Positions 3,167-13,304 of a DNA stretch of 64,000 bases are shown piece by piece (the stretch's first letter is position 1; every line of letters starts with the position of its first letter). Source of the DNA: Candidatus Omnitrophota bacterium (GTDB lineage: Bacteria; Omnitrophota; Gorgyraeia; 2-01-FULL-45-10); the NCBI GenBank assembly GCA_041663425.1, contig JBAYMS010000004.1, forward strand, positions 2,213-66,212. The letters run 5' to 3'. The translations under genes and the position numbers were made by a program. The notes under the pieces are model-generated. The model made no database searches. It saw only the letters and a program-made list of their open reading frames with translations, and was not told where the DNA came from.

Positions 3167-4024
3167 ATGCTAAAACAAAAATACGGCCTTATAGGCCACC
3201 CCGTAAAGCATTCGCTTTCGCCGGCCATGCAGAACGCTGCCTTTGGCGCGCTGGGCATTAACGCCGAATATTTTTTGTATGATGTTGAACCGGAAAAACT
3301 GGAAGGGTTCTTAAAAGATGCCCGTTCCGGCAATATATCGGGTTTCAATGTTACCGTTCCCCATAAAATAAAAACAAAAGAATATCTGGAGCGCAAAGGT
3401 TTGCTTGATGAGAACGCCAGACGGCTGGGCGCTGTAAATACGATAAAGATATGTGAGGACGGCAAGCTTTGCGGGTACAATACCGACGGCCCCGGATTTT
3501 ACCGTTCGCTCGTCGAAGATCTGAAGTTTGAGCCTGAAGGCAAAGATATATTTGTCCTGGGGGCTGGCGGAGCGGCGCATGCGGTTATAATGTATCTGGG
3601 TAACGGGCCTAAGAATATATTTGTATTCGATATAGATAAGGCAAAAACCGACGATCTGCAAGAACATTACAAAAGGTATTTTGACGGCAACAGGCTTACG
3701 ATAGTTAACAGTAATAATTTTAAAGATAAACTTAAAATTTCCAGCCTTCTTATAAATACCACTCCTGTGGGAATGAAAGAATCCGACCCGTCGCCCGTGG
3801 ACACATCTTTGCTCCATTACGGGCTTTATGTTTACGATCTTGTATATAATCGTCCTGCAACAGAGCTTGTAAAAAAAGCGACTTCGCTGAAATTGCATGC
3901 CACAACAGGCCTCGGTATGTTGCTTTATCAGGGCGCTATAGCCTTTGAGATATGGACAGGAGCTAAGGCGCCGGTAGCTGTCATGAAGAAGGCCCTTAAA
4001 GAAGCTTTAAAAAATAAGAAATAG
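3167..4024 (+). CDS. aroE: Shikimate 5-dehydrogenase
   Basis: 285 aa; N-terminal YGLIGHPVKHSLSPAMQNAAF and NTDGPGF motifs of AroE. Confidence 0.9.
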   Translation: MLKQKYGLIGHPVKHSLSPAMQNAAFGALGINAEYFLYDVEPEKLEGFLKDARSGNISGFNVTVPHKIKTKEYLERKGLLDENARRLGAVNTIKICEDGKLCGYNTDGPGFYRSLVEDLKFEPEGKDIFVLGAGGAAHAVIMYLGNGPKNIFVFDIDKAKTDDLQEHYKRYFDGNRLTIVNSNNFKDKLKISSLLINTTPVGMKESDPSPVDTSLLHYGLYVYDLVYNRPATELVKKATSLKLHATTGLGMLLYQGAIAFEIWTGAKAPVAVMKKALKEALKNKK

Positions 4025-4040
4025 AGAATAGCGAGGTAAT

Positions 4041-4817
4041 GTGTCGGCGATCTTCGTTTTTGTTTTCGGGATGATCCTGGGAAGTTTTTTAAATGTCTGC
4101 ATTTACAGAATGCCGAAGAAAGAGTCGGTTGTATTTCCGGCTTCGCACTGTCCCAAATGCGGGAAAAATATTTTCTGGTTCGACAATGTCCCGCTCCTGA
4201 GCTATTTAGTACTCAGGGGGAAATGCAGGTTTTGTAAGGCGGGGATATCGGTTAAATATCCGATCGTCGAGCTTTTGACGGCGTTTTTGCTTACAGCGCT
4301 ATTCGTAACTTTTGGCATAACACCTAAATTCTTCGCGTATTCTTTTATGTCCTGCGGTCTTATAGCTGCGACTTTTATAGATTTTGAAATACAGGAGATA
4401 CCTGACGAAATATCCGTAGGCGGCACTATCGCGGGGCTTTTGCTGGCGGCATTGTTTCCGTCGATACTTGACACTGCTACAAGGATTGCGAGCATTACCA
4501 ATTCGCTCATGGGTGCGGTTACCGGAGGCGGGATCATATTTCTGCTGGGATTTTTCGGCAAACTTGCATTTAAAAAGGATGCGATGGGCGGCGGCGATGT
4601 TAAGCTGATGGCTATGATAGGTTCGATCGTCGGCGTAAAGATGGTCATCCTGACATTTTTCATAGCGCCTTTTTTAGGAGTAGTGCCGGGGATCGTTTCA
4701 AAGATAAAGGACGGCGCTGAAACTATTCCATACGGGCCGTTCCTGTCTGCGGCTGCATTGATATCTATATTTTTCGGTAATAAGATCTTGGGGTTTTTGT
4801 TCGGCGGATTAATTTAA
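4041..4817 (+). CDS. pilD: Prepilin peptidase (type IV leader peptidase / N-methyltransferase, A24 family)
   Basis: 258 aa polytopic membrane protein; N-terminal Cys pairs CPKCG...CRFC and conserved aspartates; GTG start at 4041. Confidence 0.85.
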   Translation: MSAIFVFVFGMILGSFLNVCIYRMPKKESVVFPASHCPKCGKNIFWFDNVPLLSYLVLRGKCRFCKAGISVKYPIVELLTAFLLTALFVTFGITPKFFAYSFMSCGLIAATFIDFEIQEIPDEISVGGTIAGLLLAALFPSILDTATRIASITNSLMGAVTGGGIIFLLGFFGKLAFKKDAMGGGDVKLMAMIGSIVGVKMVILTFFIAPFLGVVPGIVSKIKDGAETIPYGPFLSAAALISIFFGNKILGFLFGGLI

Positions 4818-4904
4818 AAATGTCCCTCGGCGCGGCCGACAGTCAGATCATGGCCTTGCTCGGGACGATTTACCAGATTTGGACAATAGTAAATCGGAGG
4901 GTTT

Positions 4905-6029
4905 ATGCTCAGATATATGACAAGCGGAGAATCTCACGGCAAATGTGTTCTTGCGATACTGGACGGAATGCCGGCAGGGCTTAAAATAGACGAGGCGTCT
5001 GTAAATAAAGAGCTTTTCAGACGCATGCAGGGTTATGGCCGCGGAGCGCGCATGAAGATCGAAGCTGATAAAGTGGAGATATTGTCCGGTGTGAGGAAAT
5101 CCGTAACTATAGGCAGCCCAATATCTGTAATGATAAAGAACGTGGATCAGTCGATAGATAAGCTTCCGGTCATTCTCGATCCCAGACCAGGGCATGCCGA
5201 CCTTACGGGTGCAATAAAATATAACCTGAATGATGTCAGGAGCGTTCTTGAGCGCGCCAGTGCCAGGGAGACAGTAGCCAGGGTAAGCGTCGGGGCTATC
5301 TGTAAAATATTGTTAGCTGAATTCGGTATCCGTATAACAAGCCATGTGACAGGCATAGGCGATATAACATCTAAGCCGAGTGGATTTAGTTTCGATAAGA
5401 TATTGTCAAGAGCTGAGGCGTCTTCGGTGCGATGTGTCGATCCGGCTGCGTCAGAATTGATGTGCAAAGAGATCGATAAGGCTATGGCTGACGGCGATAC
5501 GCTGGGCGGGACATTTGAGGTTGTGGCTAACGGCGTTCCTCCGGGGCTCGGCACTTATGTTCAGTGGGACAGAAGGCTCGATAGTATGCTTGCCGGTGCG
5601 ATAATGTCTATACAGGCGATAAAAGGAGTCAGCATCGGCGCCGGGTTTGAAGCTGCCGGTATGCGCGGCTCCGCAGTGCATGACGAAATATTTTATTCAA
5701 AAGCTAAAGGATTTTTCAGAAATACAAATCAGGCGGGCGGTATCGAAGGCGGTATGAGTAACGGTGAGGATATTGTAATAACCGCCGCTATGAAGCCTAT
5801 CGCTACGCTTAAAAAACCGCTTTCAAGCATAAATATCAAGACTAAGAAGGCTTTTAAGGCTACGGTAGAGCGTTCGGATGTATGCGCAGTGCCGGCGGCA
5901 GGTGTGGTGGCCGAGAGCGTGGCTGCTGTGGAGATCGCCAATGCGATGATCTTGAAGTTTGGCGGCGATTCGGTCGGTGAGATGCTGCGCAATTATAGTG
6001 AATACTTAAAACAGGTGGCGGAATTTTAA
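4905..6029 (+). CDS. aroC: Chorismate synthase
   Basis: 374 aa; MLRYMTSGESHGKCVLAILDGMPAGL and GRGARMKIE(A) motifs characteristic of AroC. Confidence 0.95.
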   Translation: MLRYMTSGESHGKCVLAILDGMPAGLKIDEASVNKELFRRMQGYGRGARMKIEADKVEILSGVRKSVTIGSPISVMIKNVDQSIDKLPVILDPRPGHADLTGAIKYNLNDVRSVLERASARETVARVSVGAICKILLAEFGIRITSHVTGIGDITSKPSGFSFDKILSRAEASSVRCVDPAASELMCKEIDKAMADGDTLGGTFEVVANGVPPGLGTYVQWDRRLDSMLAGAIMSIQAIKGVSIGAGFEAAGMRGSAVHDEIFYSKAKGFFRNTNQAGGIEGGMSNGEDIVITAAMKPIATLKKPLSSINIKTKKAFKATVERSDVCAVPAAGVVAESVAAVEIANAMILKFGGDSVGEMLRNYSEYLKQVAEF

Positions 6030-6844: not shown

Positions 6845-7758
6845 GAATGGCTATACGGAAGATTACATTAAGTGATGCGGAATATCCGAAGAATTTACGG
6901 AATATGCATACGCCGCCGAAACAATTGTATGTCAATGGCGACTTGCTGGAGCGTGACGAGGTCGCGGTAGCGATCGTCGGCTCACGGCGCGCATCGGTCT
7001 ATGGGCTTGAAACTGCTGAGAAGTTCGGATTTGAGCTTGCCGCGCGGGGAGTGACGGTGGTCAGCGGTATGGCGATCGGTATCGACTCGGCCGCACACAA
7101 AGGTGCGCTCAAAGCCAAAGGCAGGACGATAGCGGTAATGGGCAGCGGGCATAACGTTATCTATCCGCCGCAGAATAAGAAATTGTACGAAGAGATCATA
7201 AGCAGCGGTGCGGTCGTAACGGAATACGACAATGACATGGAAGCGTTGCCGTACCATTTTCCGGCGCGCAATCGTATCATAAGCGGCCTTTCTCTGGGTA
7301 TAGTAGTTGTCGAGGCGGCCAGGAATTCAGGAGCGCTTATTACGGCGAACTTTGCGGCCGAGCAGGGCAGGACGGTGTTTGCGGTTCCGGGCAAAGTTTC
7401 GTCAAGCACTAGCTCAGGCACCAATGAACTTATTAAAGACGGCGCCTGTCTTATTCAGTCAGTCGATGACATATTACAGGAGTTGGCTATCGTGCAGGTC
7501 GGTCAGGTCGGCGGCGAGGTAAAAGAATCGCTGGATAAAAAGATATCGAAACAGACCAGGGCATATATTTATAATTCTCTGACCGATGACGAACGGAAAG
7601 TATATAAAAATTTATCAGATGAGCCGATGTATATAGACGACATTTTAGAAAAAGCAGGCATGGAGCATGCTGCGGTATCGAAAGTGTTGCTTAATTTAGA
7701 ATTGAAGAAGCTGATTTCGCAGCTTCCAGGCAAGCAATTTATACGAAAGGAAAATTAA
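6841..7758 (+). CDS. dprA: DNA processing protein DprA (Smf)
   Basis: 305 aa; Rossmann-like DprA core (VAIVGSRRASVYG, VVSGMAIGIDSAAH) and C-terminal winged-helix region. Confidence 0.9.
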   Translation: MRMAIRKITLSDAEYPKNLRNMHTPPKQLYVNGDLLERDEVAVAIVGSRRASVYGLETAEKFGFELAARGVTVVSGMAIGIDSAAHKGALKAKGRTIAVMGSGHNVIYPPQNKKLYEEIISSGAVVTEYDNDMEALPYHFPARNRIISGLSLGIVVVEAARNSGALITANFAAEQGRTVFAVPGKVSSSTSSGTNELIKDGACLIQSVDDILQELAIVQVGQVGGEVKESLDKKISKQTRAYIYNSLTDDERKVYKNLSDEPMYIDDILEKAGMEHAAVSKVLLNLELKKLISQLPGKQFIRKEN

Positions 7759-9785
7759 TGGCCAAAAACCTGGTAATAGTAGAGTCTCCCGCTAAAGCGA
7801 AGACGATAAATAAATTTCTCGGATCAAGCTACAAAGTTGTCGCCAGTATGGGGCATATTATAGACCTGCCCAAATCGAAGCTCGGGGTAGACGTTGAGAA
7901 TGACTTTGCGCCTAAGTACATAGTTATGACGGACAGGAAAAAAAATATGGCTGCGCTAAAAAAAGACGCCAAGTCCAAAACTACCATCTATCTCGCAGCC
8001 GACCCTGATCGTGAAGGCGAAGCTATAAGCTGGCATCTGAAGAATGTGCTGGGCAGCGAAGATAAGAAATGTTACAGGGTCGAGTTCGACGAAATAACCA
8101 AAGATGCCGTATTGAATGCGTTTAAGCACCCCCGCGATATAAACATGAACCTCGTTAATGCCCAGCAGGCAAGGCGGATACTCGACAGGCTTGTCGGATA
8201 TTCCATAAGCCCTATCCTTTGGAAAAAGGTAGCTAGGGGGCTTTCGGCCGGCCGCGTCCAATCTGTTGCGCTTCGCCTGATAGTTGAGCGTGAAAGCGAG
8301 ATAAAGAAATTTAACCCTCAGGAATATTGGAGTCTCGAGGCTGAGCTTAAGCGTAAAGCGGATCAGCCGAAGGATAAATTTATCGCCAAGCTTTATAAAT
8401 ATAAAGGCGTGGATGCAGATATAAAACACAAGCAGGATGCCGACAAAGCTCTGGAGCAGCTTAAGAAGGAGACTTTTATAGTCAGCGATCTGCGGGAGAC
8501 CAAGAAAAAAAGAAATCCATATCCGCCGTTTACCACATCAAAGCTTCAGCAGGAGTCGTTTAATAAACTGAAATTCTCGGGTGCGAGAACGATGCATATC
8601 GCCCAGACTTTATATGAAGGCGTCGAAATAGGGGACGAAGGGTCTGTCGGTCTTATAACTTACATGAGAACCGATTCAGTGAAAATTTCCAAAGATGCTC
8701 AGGCGGCGGCTAAAGAGTATGTCGTGAATACTTACGGTAACAAATATTATCCGGAGACGCCGAATGCTTATAAATCTAGAAAATCGGCTCAGGAAGCGCA
8801 CGAAGCCATAAGGCCGACACTTCCTTTGAGGAGTCCTGAATCTGTAAGAGATACGCTTACGCACGATCAGTTTAAACTTTATCAGCTCGTATGGAACAGG
8901 TTTATCGCCAGCCAGATGACACCGGCTGTCTTTTCGCAGGTCACTGTTGATATTAACGCCGGCGATTATCTTTTTAAGGCCAGCGATACAAAGGTGGTGT
9001 TTGACGGCTATACGGCTGTTTATGAGGTAGAGAAAGAGAAAGAGGATGATGAGGACGAAAAGACCAAACTGCCGGAGCTTTCCGTCGGGCTGCCGCTCGA
9101 TCTTCTGAACCTCATTCCCGATCAGCACTTTACTAAACCGCCGCCGAGATATTCAGATGCGAGCCTTGTAAAGATACTTGAAGAGCTCGGCATCGGCAGG
9201 CCGTCGACATATGCGCCTATTATACAGACCATTACGGCGAGGGATTATGTCAGGCGTGAGTCCGGGTATTTCCATCCGACTGAACTGGGCACAATAGTGG
9301 TTGAGCTCTTAATGAAGCATTTCACCAAGATCCTTGATGTTGAATTTACAGCTAGAATGGAAAATGAACTCGATGGCATAGAAGAGGGCGAAGCGGACTG
9401 GGTTACGGTTCTCAAAGCATTCTATTCGCCGTTCATACATTCTGTCGAGGCGGCAAAGCTTGAGATGAAGGATGTTAAAAAAGAAATAGGCGCAACGGAC
9501 CAGATATGCGAGCTTTGCGGAAAGCCTATGGTTATAAAGTGGGGCAGGCGCGGGAAGTTTTTGAGTTGTTCCGACTATCCGACCTGCAAGAACGCAAAAT
9601 CGATATCTTCAGGCGTAAAATGTCCTAATGGCTGCGGCGGAGAGCTGGTCCAGAGACGTTCTTTCCGCGGCACCTTTTACGGCTGTACGAAATACCCCGC
9701 ATGCACATTTACTTCCAAAAAACTTCCGGGGACTGAAGACAAAGAAGCCGATGATGCCAAGAAGGATGGGGAATCAGCCGCTTGA
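7758..9785 (+). CDS. topA: DNA topoisomerase I
   Basis: 675 aa; TOPRIM N-terminus (LVIVESPAKAKTI), catalytic domain, and C-terminal Cys4 zinc-ribbon repeats. Confidence 0.95.
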   Translation: MAKNLVIVESPAKAKTINKFLGSSYKVVASMGHIIDLPKSKLGVDVENDFAPKYIVMTDRKKNMAALKKDAKSKTTIYLAADPDREGEAISWHLKNVLGSEDKKCYRVEFDEITKDAVLNAFKHPRDINMNLVNAQQARRILDRLVGYSISPILWKKVARGLSAGRVQSVALRLIVERESEIKKFNPQEYWSLEAELKRKADQPKDKFIAKLYKYKGVDADIKHKQDADKALEQLKKETFIVSDLRETKKKRNPYPPFTTSKLQQESFNKLKFSGARTMHIAQTLYEGVEIGDEGSVGLITYMRTDSVKISKDAQAAAKEYVVNTYGNKYYPETPNAYKSRKSAQEAHEAIRPTLPLRSPESVRDTLTHDQFKLYQLVWNRFIASQMTPAVFSQVTVDINAGDYLFKASDTKVVFDGYTAVYEVEKEKEDDEDEKTKLPELSVGLPLDLLNLIPDQHFTKPPPRYSDASLVKILEELGIGRPSTYAPIIQTITARDYVRRESGYFHPTELGTIVVELLMKHFTKILDVEFTARMENELDGIEEGEADWVTVLKAFYSPFIHSVEAAKLEMKDVKKEIGATDQICELCGKPMVIKWGRRGKFLSCSDYPTCKNAKSISSGVKCPNGCGGELVQRRSFRGTFYGCTKYPACTFTSKKLPGTEDKEADDAKKDGESAA

Positions 9786-10663
9786 TGCAGAGGTTTGTAG
9801 AAAAATTTATAAATTACCTTAAGGTTGAAAAGAATTCTTCGGCGCATACAATAACAAATTATTCTGTGGACCTCAAAGCGTTTGAAGAATTTTTAGGCGA
9901 CAAGGACGTTTCCGCCATAGACCACCTGCTGCTCAGAAAGTTTCTTGCCGATATGCGCGCGAAGGACTATTCGAAAAGGACCGTTGCGCGCAAACTTGCA
10001 AGCTTGCGGAGTTTCTTTAAGTTTATGTATCGCGAAGGGCACATAAAGACCAACCCTATTTCCGCGATATCTACGCCCAAGCTTGATCATAAATTGCCGG
10101 TTGTCCTGGACGAAGGGCAGATAGCAAAGCTGCTCCAGTGCCCTCCCGAGGATGATGTATTCGGGCTAAGGGACAGGGCTATGCTTGAGACGATCTACTC
10201 CGCCGGGATCCGCGTAAGCGAGCTGGTGGGCTTGAATATCAGCAACGTTGACCTGATCGGTGAGGTCATTAAGGTATTCGGTAAAGGTTCTAAGGAGCGG
10301 ATGGTGCCGATAGGCCGTCCGGCAGCTACAGCGCTTCGGAGATATCTCGATAGGCGCGATGAGCTGGGTGTTAAGGATAAAGACAAGAATGCGGTGTTCC
10401 TTGGTAAAAATGGGACGCGTTTGTGGGACAGAAGTGTCCGCCGCATACTTGATAAGCATATAAAGTCATGCGCCGTTGTGGAGCATATTTCGCCGCATAG
10501 CCTGAGGCATTCGTTTGCGACACACATGCTTGATCATGGGGCGGATCTGCGCAGCGTCCAGGAACTTCTGGGCCATGCGAATCTGTCGACAACGCAGATA
10601 TACACGCATGTGACGATGGATCGCCTGAAAGCGGTGTATGACAAAGCGCATCCACGGGCATAA
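9782..10663 (+). CDS. xerC: Site-specific tyrosine recombinase XerC/XerD family
   Basis: 293 aa; phage-integrase catalytic signature (R...HSLRHSFATHMLD...LGHANLSTTQIYTHV); conserved dprA-topA-xerC synteny. Confidence 0.9.
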   Translation: MMQRFVEKFINYLKVEKNSSAHTITNYSVDLKAFEEFLGDKDVSAIDHLLLRKFLADMRAKDYSKRTVARKLASLRSFFKFMYREGHIKTNPISAISTPKLDHKLPVVLDEGQIAKLLQCPPEDDVFGLRDRAMLETIYSAGIRVSELVGLNISNVDLIGEVIKVFGKGSKERMVPIGRPAATALRRYLDRRDELGVKDKDKNAVFLGKNGTRLWDRSVRRILDKHIKSCAVVEHISPHSLRHSFATHMLDHGADLRSVQELLGHANLSTTQIYTHVTMDRLKAVYDKAHPRA

Positions 10664-10703
10664 AGTTTTTGACACGGTAGAATGTGCTGTGTCAAAGTGG
10701 TTC

Positions 10704-10789
10704 GCTTCGGACGCGTAATTTTCAACCATGTGAAAATTACGCTCGGGAAAAATTGCTCGGACGCTGCCTCGCAATTTTTACGCCGAAGC
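10704..10789. repeat. Copy A of a roughly 85-nt structured palindromic element (closing stem GCTTCGG/CCGAAGC + hairpin 10713-10742 + hairpin 10748-10779); inverted homolog of 11901-11983
   Basis: Hand alignment to the reverse complement of 11901-11983 shows about 80% identity over ~68 nt including a near-identical 14-nt loop TCGGACGCTGCCTC, with compensatory differences in all three stems. Confidence 0.6.
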
Positions 10790-10884
10790 TCACCACTTCG
10801 CCACATCACATTCATGGTGAGCGAAAAGGTTTACTGGAATTACGGTTGCCCTGGGACACGTTCAATATCAAAACCGGGGATAGC

Positions 10885-10914
10885 TTGAAGGTTGCAGATT
10901 GTACCAGGTACAAT
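10885..10914 (+). promoter_or_regulatory. Sigma70-like promoter (TTGAAG-N18-TACAAT) overlapping a 17-bp perfect palindrome ATTGTACC-A-GGTACAAT (10898-10914)
   Basis: Hexamers and palindrome read directly; located 30 nt upstream of orphan ORF start at 10946 (RBS aagg at 10935). Confidence 0.45.
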
Positions 10915-10945
10915 ATATAGTCTTAGATAATATAAGGTTTATATT

Positions 10946-11764
10946 ATGAATAATAAGAAACCATTTGCTAACTGGGTCGTGGATGAATGGGACGCCTTTA
11001 TCGAAGTATGGCGGAATAGACGTATGCTAGCAATTATTGTATTAGTAATAATTGTAGGGATAGTGGCATACTGGATTATAGATAAGGGGGCTATGGTTAG
11101 GATAATTAGTGATCTTAAAGCGCAGGTTGCTAAGATTCAGACAGAAAATAAAGAGCTTGCCGTAGAGAAGAATTTGCTTCGCATTGAAAATACTAGCTTA
11201 AAAGAAACTGTTGCACCCCTTCTTAAGCAAGCCGCCAAGGAATTTCCAGGAGAAGAAATTAATGAGTCGTTAAAAAAAATAGTTACTAGACTGAACGCAG
11301 TCGCACCGCTTAGTCAACCAATACGAGTGGCTACCGCAGCCATTGAAGTACGGATCAAGTCCGAAGAGAGTTTAAATAGTCATTTTATGGATCGGGGTGC
11401 TTATATTGCATTTGCTAAAGAAGGATCTGGTTTTGCTTTTGGAACACAAAAGGAAATATTCGTGATTATGAAATCTTTAGATTGTTTTGCTAATCAATTG
11501 GGAGAAGGGGAGGTTGCATATAAAGCACTCTGTAATATGGATGTTGGTAAGGGCATTACTGAAAAGCCCATCTCCCATCTTAATGACGCTAATTATATTG
11601 AAGTAGGATTTTCGCCGATGTTAAAAAAAAGTGATGTAGATGTAACGGGAGGGTCTATTGTTTGTACATTTAATAGTCTGGTTCGTGCAGAATTAAATAT
11701 TCCTCCACAGAAAATGTCTAATGGTGTAATTGTAATTCGCGATGCTAAAATATCTTTAAAGTAG
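10946..11764 (+). CDS. Hypothetical membrane-anchored coiled-coil protein (orphan, AT-rich, likely horizontally acquired)
   Basis: 272 aa; short cytoplasmic N-term, one TM helix (LAIIVLVIIVGIVAYWII), ~80-aa heptad/coiled-coil segment, ~150-aa C-terminal globular domain with no family I recognise; codon usage visibly more A/T-rich than neighbours. Confidence 0.6.
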   Translation: MNNKKPFANWVVDEWDAFIEVWRNRRMLAIIVLVIIVGIVAYWIIDKGAMVRIISDLKAQVAKIQTENKELAVEKNLLRIENTSLKETVAPLLKQAAKEFPGEEINESLKKIVTRLNAVAPLSQPIRVATAAIEVRIKSEESLNSHFMDRGAYIAFAKEGSGFAFGTQKEIFVIMKSLDCFANQLGEGEVAYKALCNMDVGKGITEKPISHLNDANYIEVGFSPMLKKSDVDVTGGSIVCTFNSLVRAELNIPPQKMSNGVIVIRDAKISLK

Positions 11765-11900
11765 TTGTTGGAAATTTAGCTCTGGAATTAGTGCATAGTT
11801 GAATGCTCGAGAGGGCTGTGTTTACGCGACGATGTGCGCCAGATTGAGCGAGGAAATTTTTCGACTCTGTAGTAGAAATTCCCGCAGGGATTTGTGACGA

Positions 11901-11983
11901 GCGGGGCGTTAAAATTTCGAGGCAGCGTACGAGAAATTTTACAGAGCAAATTTTTTACATGGCTGAAAAATTTGCGTCCCCGC
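11901..11983. repeat. Copy B (inverted) of the ~85-nt structured element; closing stem GCGGGG/CCCCGC, hairpin 11946-11975, second hairpin 11909-11940
   Basis: Reverse complement aligns with 10704-10789; flanked by short mutually inverted hairpins 11875-11896 and 11988-12009. Confidence 0.6.
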
Positions 11984-12035
11984 GAGGCACAATCCCGGAA
12001 GGGAATTCCTCGAGGGATGAAAATTTAGGAGTGAG

Positions 12036-13304
12036 ATGCTTTACGACATAGGATTTTTCATATTTTCACTGTTCTACTTGCCGACTTTGATATTCAAGGG
12101 CAAGCTGCATGGTGACTTTGGCGAAAGGTTCGGCTTTTACGGCAGGGAGAAGCGCGCGGCGCTTGCGCAGGCCAAGGGCGCGATATGGATACAGGCGGTG
12201 AGTGTCGGAGAAGTTGCGCTCTGCAGGAGCCTTGTTCCGATGATGCGCGAAAAGTTTCCGCAGCATCCGATAGTCTTTTCGACGATAACAAAGACAGGTA
12301 ATGAGCTTGCCAGGAAATTGTTTTCCAAAGATGCGGTGATCATATATTTCCCGCTCGACTTTTCGTTCGTTGTTAAAAAAGTGATCCGCATGATAAAACC
12401 GAAGATGTATGTTATGGTAGAGACGGAGATATGGCCCAACTTTCTTAAGACGATAGAACGCAATACGATCCCTGCCATTCTTATAAACGGAAGGATCTCG
12501 GATAAGTCCTTCGGGAAATATGAGATGGCGAGGCCGTTCCTTCAGAAGATAATAAAGAATATGAACTCTCTGTGCATGCAGTCGAAGACCGATGCGGACA
12601 GGATAATAAAGATGGGCGCTGCCGCTGAAAAAGTAAAAGTCACCGGCAACATGAAGTTCGACGTTCCGGCCAAGCCCATCCAGTCCTCAGGCGATGAGCT
12701 CAAGAAACAGCTTGGGCTCGAGGAGGGCGATGAGCTTCTTGTGGCGGGATCGACGCATCCGGGCGAGGAAGAGGCGGTTATTGATGCGTATCAGGATATT
12801 GTTAAAAAGATCCCCGGCCTTAAACTTCTGATAGCTCCGCGCCACATCGATCGCGCGGATGAGGTTGCGGAAGTCGCCAGGGGCTGCGGATTTAATCCTG
12901 TTAAATTGTCTGTCCTGCAGTCGGATGCCTCTAATTCCCAGATTTTCATATTGGATACAATAGGCCGCCTGAACGATTTCTATTCGATCGCATCGGCCGT
13001 ATTTGTTGGCGGCAGCCTTATACCGCACGGCGGACAGAACCCGATAGAGCCCGCTATTTATGGTAAGCCCGTGATATTCGGGCCGTATATGTTCAATTTT
13101 AAAGGTATCGCCGAAGCGTTTCTCAGCAAAGATGCGGCAATACGGGTTGATGCTGCAGGTGACCTGACTGCCGTCCTTTATAATATGCTGGCGAATAAAA
13201 ATAGACAGGCGGAGGTCGGCTTGCGCGCCAAAGAGGTTATTGCCGCAAATAGGGGTGCCACAGAAAACGTATTGAATGAAATGGGCAGGTTCCTGAATGC
13301 GTAA
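12036..13304 (+). CDS. waaA: 3-deoxy-D-manno-octulosonic acid (Kdo) transferase
   Basis: 422 aa; N-terminal membrane anchor, GT30 N-domain (IWIQAVSVGEV) and C-terminal GT-B domain; followed by lpxK. Confidence 0.9.
   Translation: MLYDIGFFIFSLFYLPTLIFKGKLHGDFGERFGFYGREKRAALAQAKGAIWIQAVSVGEVALCRSLVPMMREKFPQHPIVFSTITKTGNELARKLFSKDAVIIYFPLDFSFVVKKVIRMIKPKMYVMVETEIWPNFLKTIERNTIPAILINGRISDKSFGKYEMARPFLQKIIKNMNSLCMQSKTDADRIIKMGAAAEKVKVTGNMKFDVPAKPIQSSGDELKKQLGLEEGDELLVAGSTHPGEEEAVIDAYQDIVKKIPGLKLLIAPRHIDRADEVAEVARGCGFNPVKLSVLQSDASNSQIFILDTIGRLNDFYSIASAVFVGGSLIPHGGQNPIEPAIYGKPVIFGPYMFNFKGIAEAFLSKDAAIRVDAAGDLTAVLYNMLANKNRQAEVGLRAKEVIAANRGATENVLNEMGRFLNA

Follow-up and report, generated by a model that had tools for sequence, protein, structure and literature searches.

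What kind of protein is encoded by the A/T-rich gene lying between xerC and waaA in a Candidatus Omnitrophota bacterium, and how did the gene come to be there? The stretch of DNA analysed, here called the window, comprises 64,000 nucleotides of contig JBAYMS010000004.1, and the gene is an open reading frame (ORF) of 272 codons. It is a genuine gene of a genuine, unannotated family, and a horizontally acquired, stand-alone accessory gene. Its product is best described as belonging to a new, uncharacterised domain family within a familiar architectural class, encoded in an accessory-gene hotspot. This structural and evolutionary description is held, as a whole, with high confidence. The best overall explanation, namely that the acquired gene in the hotspot encodes an accessory envelope factor active in conflict or exclusion, is favoured tentatively.

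An acquired gene for a stalked membrane protein

The gene and its candidate expression signals are as follows:

10946..11764, + strand: ORF, 272 amino acids (ATG 10946, TAG 11764)
10934-10937, + strand: Shine-Dalgarno-like AAGG, 8 nt upstream of the ORF ATG
10885..10914, + strand: promoter-like (sigma-70-like) site TTGAAG-18-TACAAT, 32 nt upstream of the ORF ATG

The count of sigma-70-like sites around the ORF is within chance expectation. The protein has a database twin that is 100% identical, the NCBI entry 'hypothetical protein WCY36_00990' from a Candidatus Omnitrophota metagenome-assembled genome.

In composition the ORF is the most atypical of the 58 large ORFs of the window. Its GC content is 0.376, against 0.455 +/- 0.023 for the window genes (z = -3.4); GC content at third codon positions (GC3) is 0.29 against 0.48 +/- 0.05 (z = -4.0); and its codon-usage log-likelihood is -0.046 against 0.066 +/- 0.027 (z = -4.1). 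The A/T-rich codons noted in the original prediction, which was made from the DNA letters alone, are therefore real. Horizontal acquisition follows from the GC3 and codon-score deviations, together with the extreme rank among the 58 genes.

The protein divides into a tail, a membrane helix, a stalk with a hinge, and a head:

10946..11023, + strand: N-terminal tail, residues 1-26, an amphipathic helix ending in WRNRR (helix at residues 7-24 in the AlphaFold2, or AF2, model)
11024..11080, + strand: single transmembrane (TM) helix, residues 27-45, MLAIIVLVIIVGIVAYWII (Kyte-Doolittle hydropathy, KD19 = 3.09)
11093..11233, + strand: leucine-zipper stalk, residues 50-96, seven heptads (AF2 and heptad positions)
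11186..11275, + strand: near-invariant hinge, residues 81-110, EN..L.ETVAPL..AAKEFPGEEIN.SLKK, helix-break-helix (alignment and AF2)
11306..11749, + strand: C-terminal beta-sandwich domain, residues ~121-268 (AF2 domain-only model)
11423..11449, + strand: GSGFAFGTQ, residues 160-168, a 9-residue loop insertion (gap in 17/17 aligned homologs)

By hydropathy (KD19), residues 27-45 are the sole strongly hydrophobic segment, and three positive charges directly precede them. The tail is probably cytoplasmic, and the protein would thus cross the membrane once with its amino terminus inside and its carboxyl terminus outside. Beyond the membrane, the zipper d positions are occupied by M50, L57, I64, L71, L78, L85, and L92, whereas Asn82 falls at an a position and is invariant across the 18-sequence homolog alignment. 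By established coiled-coil rules, an a-position Asn promotes parallel dimers in register. The zipper most likely dimerises in parallel, because this residue is invariant among the aligned homologs. A single N-terminal TM helix followed by a long heptad region had been proposed from the start, and both are borne out.

With the same 18-sequence alignment, AF2 predicts an unbroken helix at residues 26-99, a second helix at residues 103-118, and then an all-beta domain; mean confidence over the full-length model, expressed as the predicted local distance difference test (pLDDT), is 81.8. The helix break at residues 100-102 falls on the conserved PGE. Fifteen of the 20 invariant columns of the alignment lie within the hinge, and such near-invariance hints at a contact that is conserved or at a conformational switch. 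The helix continues for 54 residues after the TM segment, to which the second helix is added; together they would put some 8-10 nm between the inner membrane and the head.

The original prediction had singled out a GSGFAFG motif in the C-terminal region. This proved to be no conserved motif: the residues belong to an insertion missing from all 17 aligned homologs, and residues 161-166 have pLDDT < 50, forming the only low-confidence loop of the model. GSGFAFG is an insertion particular to this protein or its lineage and no feature of the family.

The beta-sandwich head and its family

Modelled alone from 108 sequences, the C-terminal domain reaches a pLDDT of 92.4 and a predicted template-modelling (TM) score of 0.86, in agreement with the globular C terminus of about 150 residues that had been suggested. 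The recommended AlphaFold and Foldseek check thus returned a confident beta-sandwich; for its relationship to known folds it returned only a weak match to PLAT/LH2. Full-length and domain models gave alike results in Foldseek searches against the PDB, with matches almost exclusively to PLAT/LH2 domains. Nearly all of the top 50 matches are PLAT domains of lipoxygenases and lipases, including soybean, grape, maize, and coral lipoxygenases, human 5-lipoxygenase, and lipoprotein and pancreatic lipases; they come from three unrelated enzyme families. Scores range from E 6e-5 to 1e-3 at a probability of ~1.0, with template-modelling scores of 0.33-0.44, the best matches at 0.36-0.44, and root-mean-square deviations of 6-7 A. 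The PLAT model PF01477 matches neither the ORF protein, even at E <= 10, nor any of the 108 relatives at E <= 1e-3 (Pfam), and a PDB sequence-profile search with the ORF protein was empty. The modelled head thus appears to have a PLAT/LH2-like topology: a consistent resemblance at the level of topology, short of proof of homology.

PLAT domains are eight-stranded beta-sandwiches that serve as non-catalytic membrane/lipid- and protein-binding modules, the lipid binding often depending on Ca2+; they are found as the N-terminal barrel of lipoxygenases and as the C-terminal domain of lipoprotein and pancreatic lipases. The head resembles them in being a beta-sandwich of about 120-150 residues without conserved catalytic residues. 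It differs in lacking sequence similarity, in having an extra strand and a short helix, and in its place at the C-terminal end of a bacterial membrane stalk, where it is probably exported, whereas PLAT is part of a soluble enzyme. The conserved head positions (MDRGG, G, N, and IP.Q) are none of them catalytic in appearance. Because there is no catalytic signature, binding is the most likely mode of action of the head, its target being a lipid surface, a wall component, or another protein.

The protein had been called an orphan. This stands as far as annotation goes: scans of Pfam, NCBIfam, PADLOC, and PHROGs with the ORF protein found only sub-threshold coiled-coil noise (DivIC at 13.8 bits, FtsL, EzrA, YabA, ZapB, and an Rz-like spanin), and none of the defence-protein hidden Markov model families of PADLOC-DB 2.0 matches at E <= 10. 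It does not stand for homologs. A word-index search found 19 relatives at 30-45% identity, all unannotated, and an exhaustive profile search found 453 clusters (50% identity) at E <= 1e-3, of which 122 reach E <= 1e-30. All 453 are metagenome-only and unannotated, and a cluster look-up of the family returned unnamed singletons only. About 35 of the representatives listed match most of the profile; the others share only the C-terminal domain of ~145 residues.

What precedes this domain varies. Some members have a bare TM helix (~185 amino acids) and some have three TM helices; one (P0038) carries a lipoprotein signal with the lipobox LTGC; two (P0051 and P0111) have Sec-type signal peptides; and three (P0081, P0085, and P0099) have a TM-less region of 350-450 residues followed by one TM helix. 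The domain itself is always at the extreme C terminus, with a median of 6 residues after it, and a hydrophobic segment lies upstream in 120 of 134 full-length representatives. On these grounds, the C-terminal domain is probably, in the normal case, an extracytoplasmic, periplasmic head. Informative fusions were few: a Pfam scan of ten long relatives found DUF6236 in one only, and a scan of 108 relatives found DivIC and coiled-coil matches only. Conversely, a search with the N-terminal module (TM helix, zipper, and hinge) found no different C-terminal head, only the same family or fragments of it. Literature searches on DUF6236, on PLAT in combination with anti-phage activity, and on Omnitrophota defence found nothing relevant.

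Four soil-metagenome loci (L122, L124, L125, and L126; for example, L126 at 4376-4597) align with no more than the initial ~80 residues of the C-terminal domain and share surrounding small ORFs of 103, 95, and 159 amino acids. These may be truncated or degenerate family copies in a conserved context.

The xerC-waaA spacer and its repeats

The genes that frame the ORF are ordinary, and their names rest on sequence resemblance except where indicated:

7758-9785: topA
9782-10663: xerC, an XerC/D-type recombinase (checked against Pfam)
10664..12035, no strand assigned: variable xerC-waaA spacer, an insertion hotspot, 1372 bp in the window (locus comparison)
12036-13304: waaA
14303-16249: lpxL-like ORF, 648 amino acids, after lpxK (label from position)

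In the window, waaA is followed by lpxK and then by the lpxL-like fusion gene; the latter overlaps the end of lpxK by 32 nt and is conserved at full length in L009-L015, at 61-81% identity (L numbers denote loci from other genomes or metagenomes). Relatives were found by a WaaA scan of 185,579 species genomes, which yielded 80 loci, and these were compared with six window proteins by tblastn. Ten Omnitrophota-type relatives preserve the order topA-xerC-waaA: L010-L013, L015-L018, L021, and, partially, L019. Most of them retain lpxK and the lpxL-like gene as well. The xerC-waaA gaps of the ten measure 68-589 bp, and tblastn detects no homolog of the ORF in them. That the protein is not a housekeeping one, as first proposed, agrees with this result: no homolog is conserved at xerC-waaA in any of the ten, and conservation of that kind had been named beforehand as the finding that would count against the proposal.

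The two closest relatives both have an enlarged spacer. In L014 (XerC 80% and WaaA 71% identical), the spacer is 2.4 kb at 3594-6000, with a GC content of 0.38, and encodes an NYN-domain protein and a single-TM protein of 234 amino acids. In L009 (WaaA 78% identical), it is at least 1.7 kb at 1-1687, with a GC content of 0.35, and encodes a single-TM protein of 231 amino acids, an HTH_17 protein, and a Fic/Doc protein. Within this sub-clade, the xerC-waaA spacer thus acts like a small hotspot of insertion. Like defence islands and integration hotspots elsewhere, it consists of a fixed core pair, xerC and waaA, that brackets differing low-GC cargo in close relatives. Unlike them, it is very small, with one to three genes; has no integrase of its own besides the conserved, housekeeping-type xerC; and is marked by a structured host repeat in place of a tRNA gene or att site.

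In the window, L014, and L009, each low-GC cargo includes a single-TM protein of 230-270 amino acids. The three proteins are unrelated, with no mutual similarity by hhalign or BLASTP.

The two flanks of the ORF form the best inverted repeat in the window, with 89% complementarity over 36 nt and 80% over a longer stretch of ~76 nt. Copies of this repeat were located with a covariance model:

10698..10796, + strand: left copy, outer stem and two hairpins (106 bits), 35 nt after the xerC stop
11894..11994, - strand: right copy, inverted (118 bits), between the ORF stop and waaA
L014 3630-3731, + strand: copy at the same position after xerC (124 bits)
L014 10262-10362, + strand: copy after the lpxL-like gene (115 bits)
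L009 1-76, + strand: copy cut by the contig end (53 bits)
L013 10206-10304, + strand: copy after the lpxL-like gene (E 6e-5)
L010 857-997, + strand: copy at E 1e-3

Each repeat of ~100 nt consists of an outer stem around two A/T-rich hairpins; for the left copy, the folding energy is -35 kcal/mol (z = -4.6). Among four full copies, hairpin A shows compensatory double changes in 6 of its 12 pairs, and both its loop RCCATG and the core of hairpin B, ACGCTGCC, are conserved. Rfam has no family for the repeat, and its core is absent from the viral contigs searched. The L009 contig begins within a copy, consistent with a multi-copy repeat, though short of showing it.

The original prediction had described the flanks as mobile-looking. 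The inverted repeats are real, but they do not form the termini of an element carrying the ORF, because copies occur in relatives without the ORF and none occurs near its homologs (41 other loci). They are a structured intergenic element of the host lineage, similar to repetitive extragenic palindromic (REP) sequences, that tends to sit after genes. High-scoring copies coincide with expanded spacers in the window, L014, and L009, and from this co-occurrence the repeats may favour recombination at xerC-waaA.

Two other identities for the repeat were rejected. Hairpin A, with 12-bp arms and a 6-nt spacer, has the outline of a dif-like Xer site. However, GC skew does not switch here, other copies follow the lpxL-like gene, and the arms co-vary symmetrically between copies; the last counts against a dif site because the arms of a protein-binding site would be expected to stay fixed in sequence. 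An integron cassette was likewise set aside: the copies lie in inverted, not direct, orientation, and the only recombinase concerned is the syntenic, housekeeping-type XerC.

Several further features of the region stand apart from the repeat. A cluster of AAAATTT/AAATTTT motifs at 11850-12025, upstream of waaA, lies only partly in the right copy; the window holds 39 such motifs, 6 of them in this cluster, against 15.6 expected window-wide from mononucleotide shuffling. The empty spacers of L011 and L013 contain similar AAAATTT-type motifs. The cluster might serve as an array of protein-binding sites or as a promoter element of the waaA operon. The window is unusually co-linear, with 57 of 58 ORFs of at least 150 amino acids on the + strand, and GC skew, profiled by sliding windows over 6-18 kb, stays positive throughout. 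The window contains no tRNA genes and no Rfam match.

Possible roles in the cell envelope

Clues to function might come from the genes that accompany the homologs. Their loci were gathered by exact-protein look-ups and by one metagenome scan with the domain alignment (35 loci), and 87 genes within +/-3 positions in 20 non-redundant loci were compared and scanned with Pfam and PADLOC. All-against-all BLASTP found no recurrent neighbour family in the 20 loci, so the gene appears to be a stand-alone unit. Some neighbours are conflict or mobility genes. A family member of 244 amino acids lies directly beside a GajA gene (E 1e-280; L105, 7707-10990), and another of 200 amino acids directly beside a two-gene cyclic-oligonucleotide-based anti-phage signalling system (CBASS) that consists of a cyclase and a patatin effector (L101, 5530-8435). 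A TIR protein (L106) and a candidate PDC-S45 system (L121) are found near others, as are AbiEi/AbiEii, an Mrr nuclease, DUF433/DUF5615 and MazE antitoxins, two integrases (one directly upstream, in L092), and a WYL regulator (L089). The remainder include ordinary metabolic genes: radical SAM enzymes, a polyprenyl synthase, CinA, and dehydrogenases. A search of homolog neighbourhoods for defence islands, as originally advised, therefore gave a divided answer: GajA, CBASS, TIR, and PDC-S45 neighbours are present, but at a minority of loci. The neighbourhoods look richer in conflict genes than would be expected of random genes, an impression that concerns this minority and has no background control.

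These observations can be assembled into a model. The gene would have been acquired by horizontal transfer and lodged in the lineage-specific variable spot between xerC and waaA. Its product would be a bitopic inner-membrane protein with a 26-residue cytoplasmic tail, a TM helix, a zipper, a hinge, and a beta-sandwich head, and the zipper dimer would hold the PLAT-like head some 8-10 nm out in the periplasm. There the head might bind some part of the envelope, whether lipid surface, wall component, or protein. The whole would serve as an envelope tether, modifier, or blocker, for example of phage entry, rather than as a cytoplasmic sensor or effector. Exclusion at the envelope would fit the acquisition, the hotspot cargo, and some of the homolog neighbourhoods. 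Defence or exclusion is a plausible, unproven role; a role of this protein in envelope conflict, taken by itself, is possible though doubtful.

A number of points weigh against this model. Recognised defence genes occur in only ~5 of 20 neighbourhoods, counted without a background control, and many neighbours are ordinary metabolic genes. Family members are absent from the collections searched for mobile DNA: no relatives of the ORF protein were found in IMG/VR viral contigs with two profiles, or in phage and plasmid collections by tblastn. The PLAT resemblance is weak, at the scores given above, and no sequence model supports it. The positive-inside signal of the ORF protein itself is only modest. 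Finally, a few family members lack any hydrophobic segment (for example, P0102 with DUF6236), and export of the domain may not hold for every member.

The protein had been put forward as a candidate novel effector, perhaps a membrane-tethered sensor or an abortive-infection protein. The broader suggestion keeps some force, in that the gene is foreign, lies in a variable spot, and has homologs with some defence neighbours; it is weakened by the lack of an output domain, a partner, or a PADLOC match. The specific proposal, that a novel defence system uses it as a membrane-tethered sensor or an abortive-infection effector, is unlikely. It can draw on the foreign composition, on a hotspot that carries toxin-antitoxin and NYN cargo in relatives, and on the homologs that adjoin Gabija, CBASS, and TIR genes. 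However, PADLOC gives no match and no partner gene is conserved in the 20 loci; the putative cytoplasmic part is just 26 residues long, without an output domain; the single TM helix comes with no pore-forming or enzymatic signature; the conserved domain appears to be exported; and the GSGFAFG residues, from which the proposal partly started, lack conservation. A more ambitious form of the envelope model, in which the ORF founds a new family of single-gene envelope proteins for phage exclusion or conflict and the repeat beside xerC marks a new type of small hotspot, is decidedly unlikely.

Could the protein instead belong to the division machinery? A paralogue of FtsB, DivIC, or FtsL would pair with the host FtsL or FtsB and act in, or modulate, division. 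The base of the protein invites this reading: a short N-terminal tail, one TM helix, and a leucine zipper beyond the membrane are the layout of the FtsB/DivIC/FtsL class (PF04977), and a bitopic TM-plus-zipper module is the FtsB/DivIC architecture. Weak matches point the same way, to DivIC, FtsL, EzrA, and ZapB for the ORF protein itself; the DivIC model also matches 6 of 108 relatives at E < 1e-3 (best E 7.5e-7), homolog P0009 has a precomputed DivIC match, and one family fragment was named 'cell division protein FtsB' by the Joint Genome Institute (JGI). Yet the DivIC score of the ORF protein, 13.8 bits (E 0.052), falls below the 28.9-bit family cut-off, and the conserved hinge and the 150-residue beta-sandwich lie beyond the FtsB/DivIC layout. 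To our knowledge, FtsB/DivIC proteins lack such a domain. Moreover, the gene is accessory and not syntenic, being missing at this locus in ten relatives and foreign in composition, and family members are rare singletons in scattered, unrelated contexts. A divisome paralogue is accordingly improbable.

Other stalked proteins offer a looser comparison. TolA, the Rz i-spanin, and the eukaryotic SUN proteins each place a membrane anchor, a helical stalk, and a head across an inter-membrane space. The general design of the ORF protein is similar, a lead drawn from general knowledge and, for SUN, by analogy only. It differs in that no sequence match is significant and in having no o-spanin, holin, endolysin, or Tol/Pal neighbours. 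As a stalked envelope protein, it can be likened to an FtsB/DivIC module at the base that bears a PLAT-like head.

A role as an accessory factor of lipopolysaccharide (LPS) or outer-membrane biogenesis, suggested by the position upstream of waaA-lpxK-lpxL, is very improbable. The neighbours waaA, lpxK, and the lpxL-like gene speak for it, as do one homolog near Wzy_C and GT9 heptosyltransferase genes and another near an AsmA/DUF748 gene. However, the ten relatives retain LPS genes without the ORF between xerC and waaA; the hotspot explains the position, other relatives having unrelated cargo there; and no envelope-biogenesis family recurs among the 87 neighbours.

Equally remote is cargo of a miniature inverted-repeat transposable element (MITE) or transposon-like cassette with the flanking repeats as its termini, or a prophage remnant of Rz-type spanin: the repeat does bracket a low-GC ORF, and a weak Rz-like spanin match exists (phrog_739, E 0.019), but the left repeat stands at the same post-xerC place in L014 with different cargo, L014 and L013 have further copies behind the lpxL-like gene, none lies by the homologs, and there is no transposase, no target duplication, and no tRNA, phage gene, or phage or viral homolog.

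What would follow from the preferred reading, an acquired envelope protein of the conflict or exclusion type? Should the proposed role be false, there would remain a well-described protein of unknown function, with two misleading cues, GSGFAFG and the 'mobile' repeats, cleared away. If it is true, the protein would represent a new extracytoplasmic domain family of about 450 clusters, none of them in Pfam, and would extend the accessory or defence repertoire of uncultured diderm phyla by a simple envelope factor encoded in one gene. The xerC-waaA spacer would then provide an experimentally tractable example, from the Omnitrophota, of a very small insertion hotspot with core genes on both sides.

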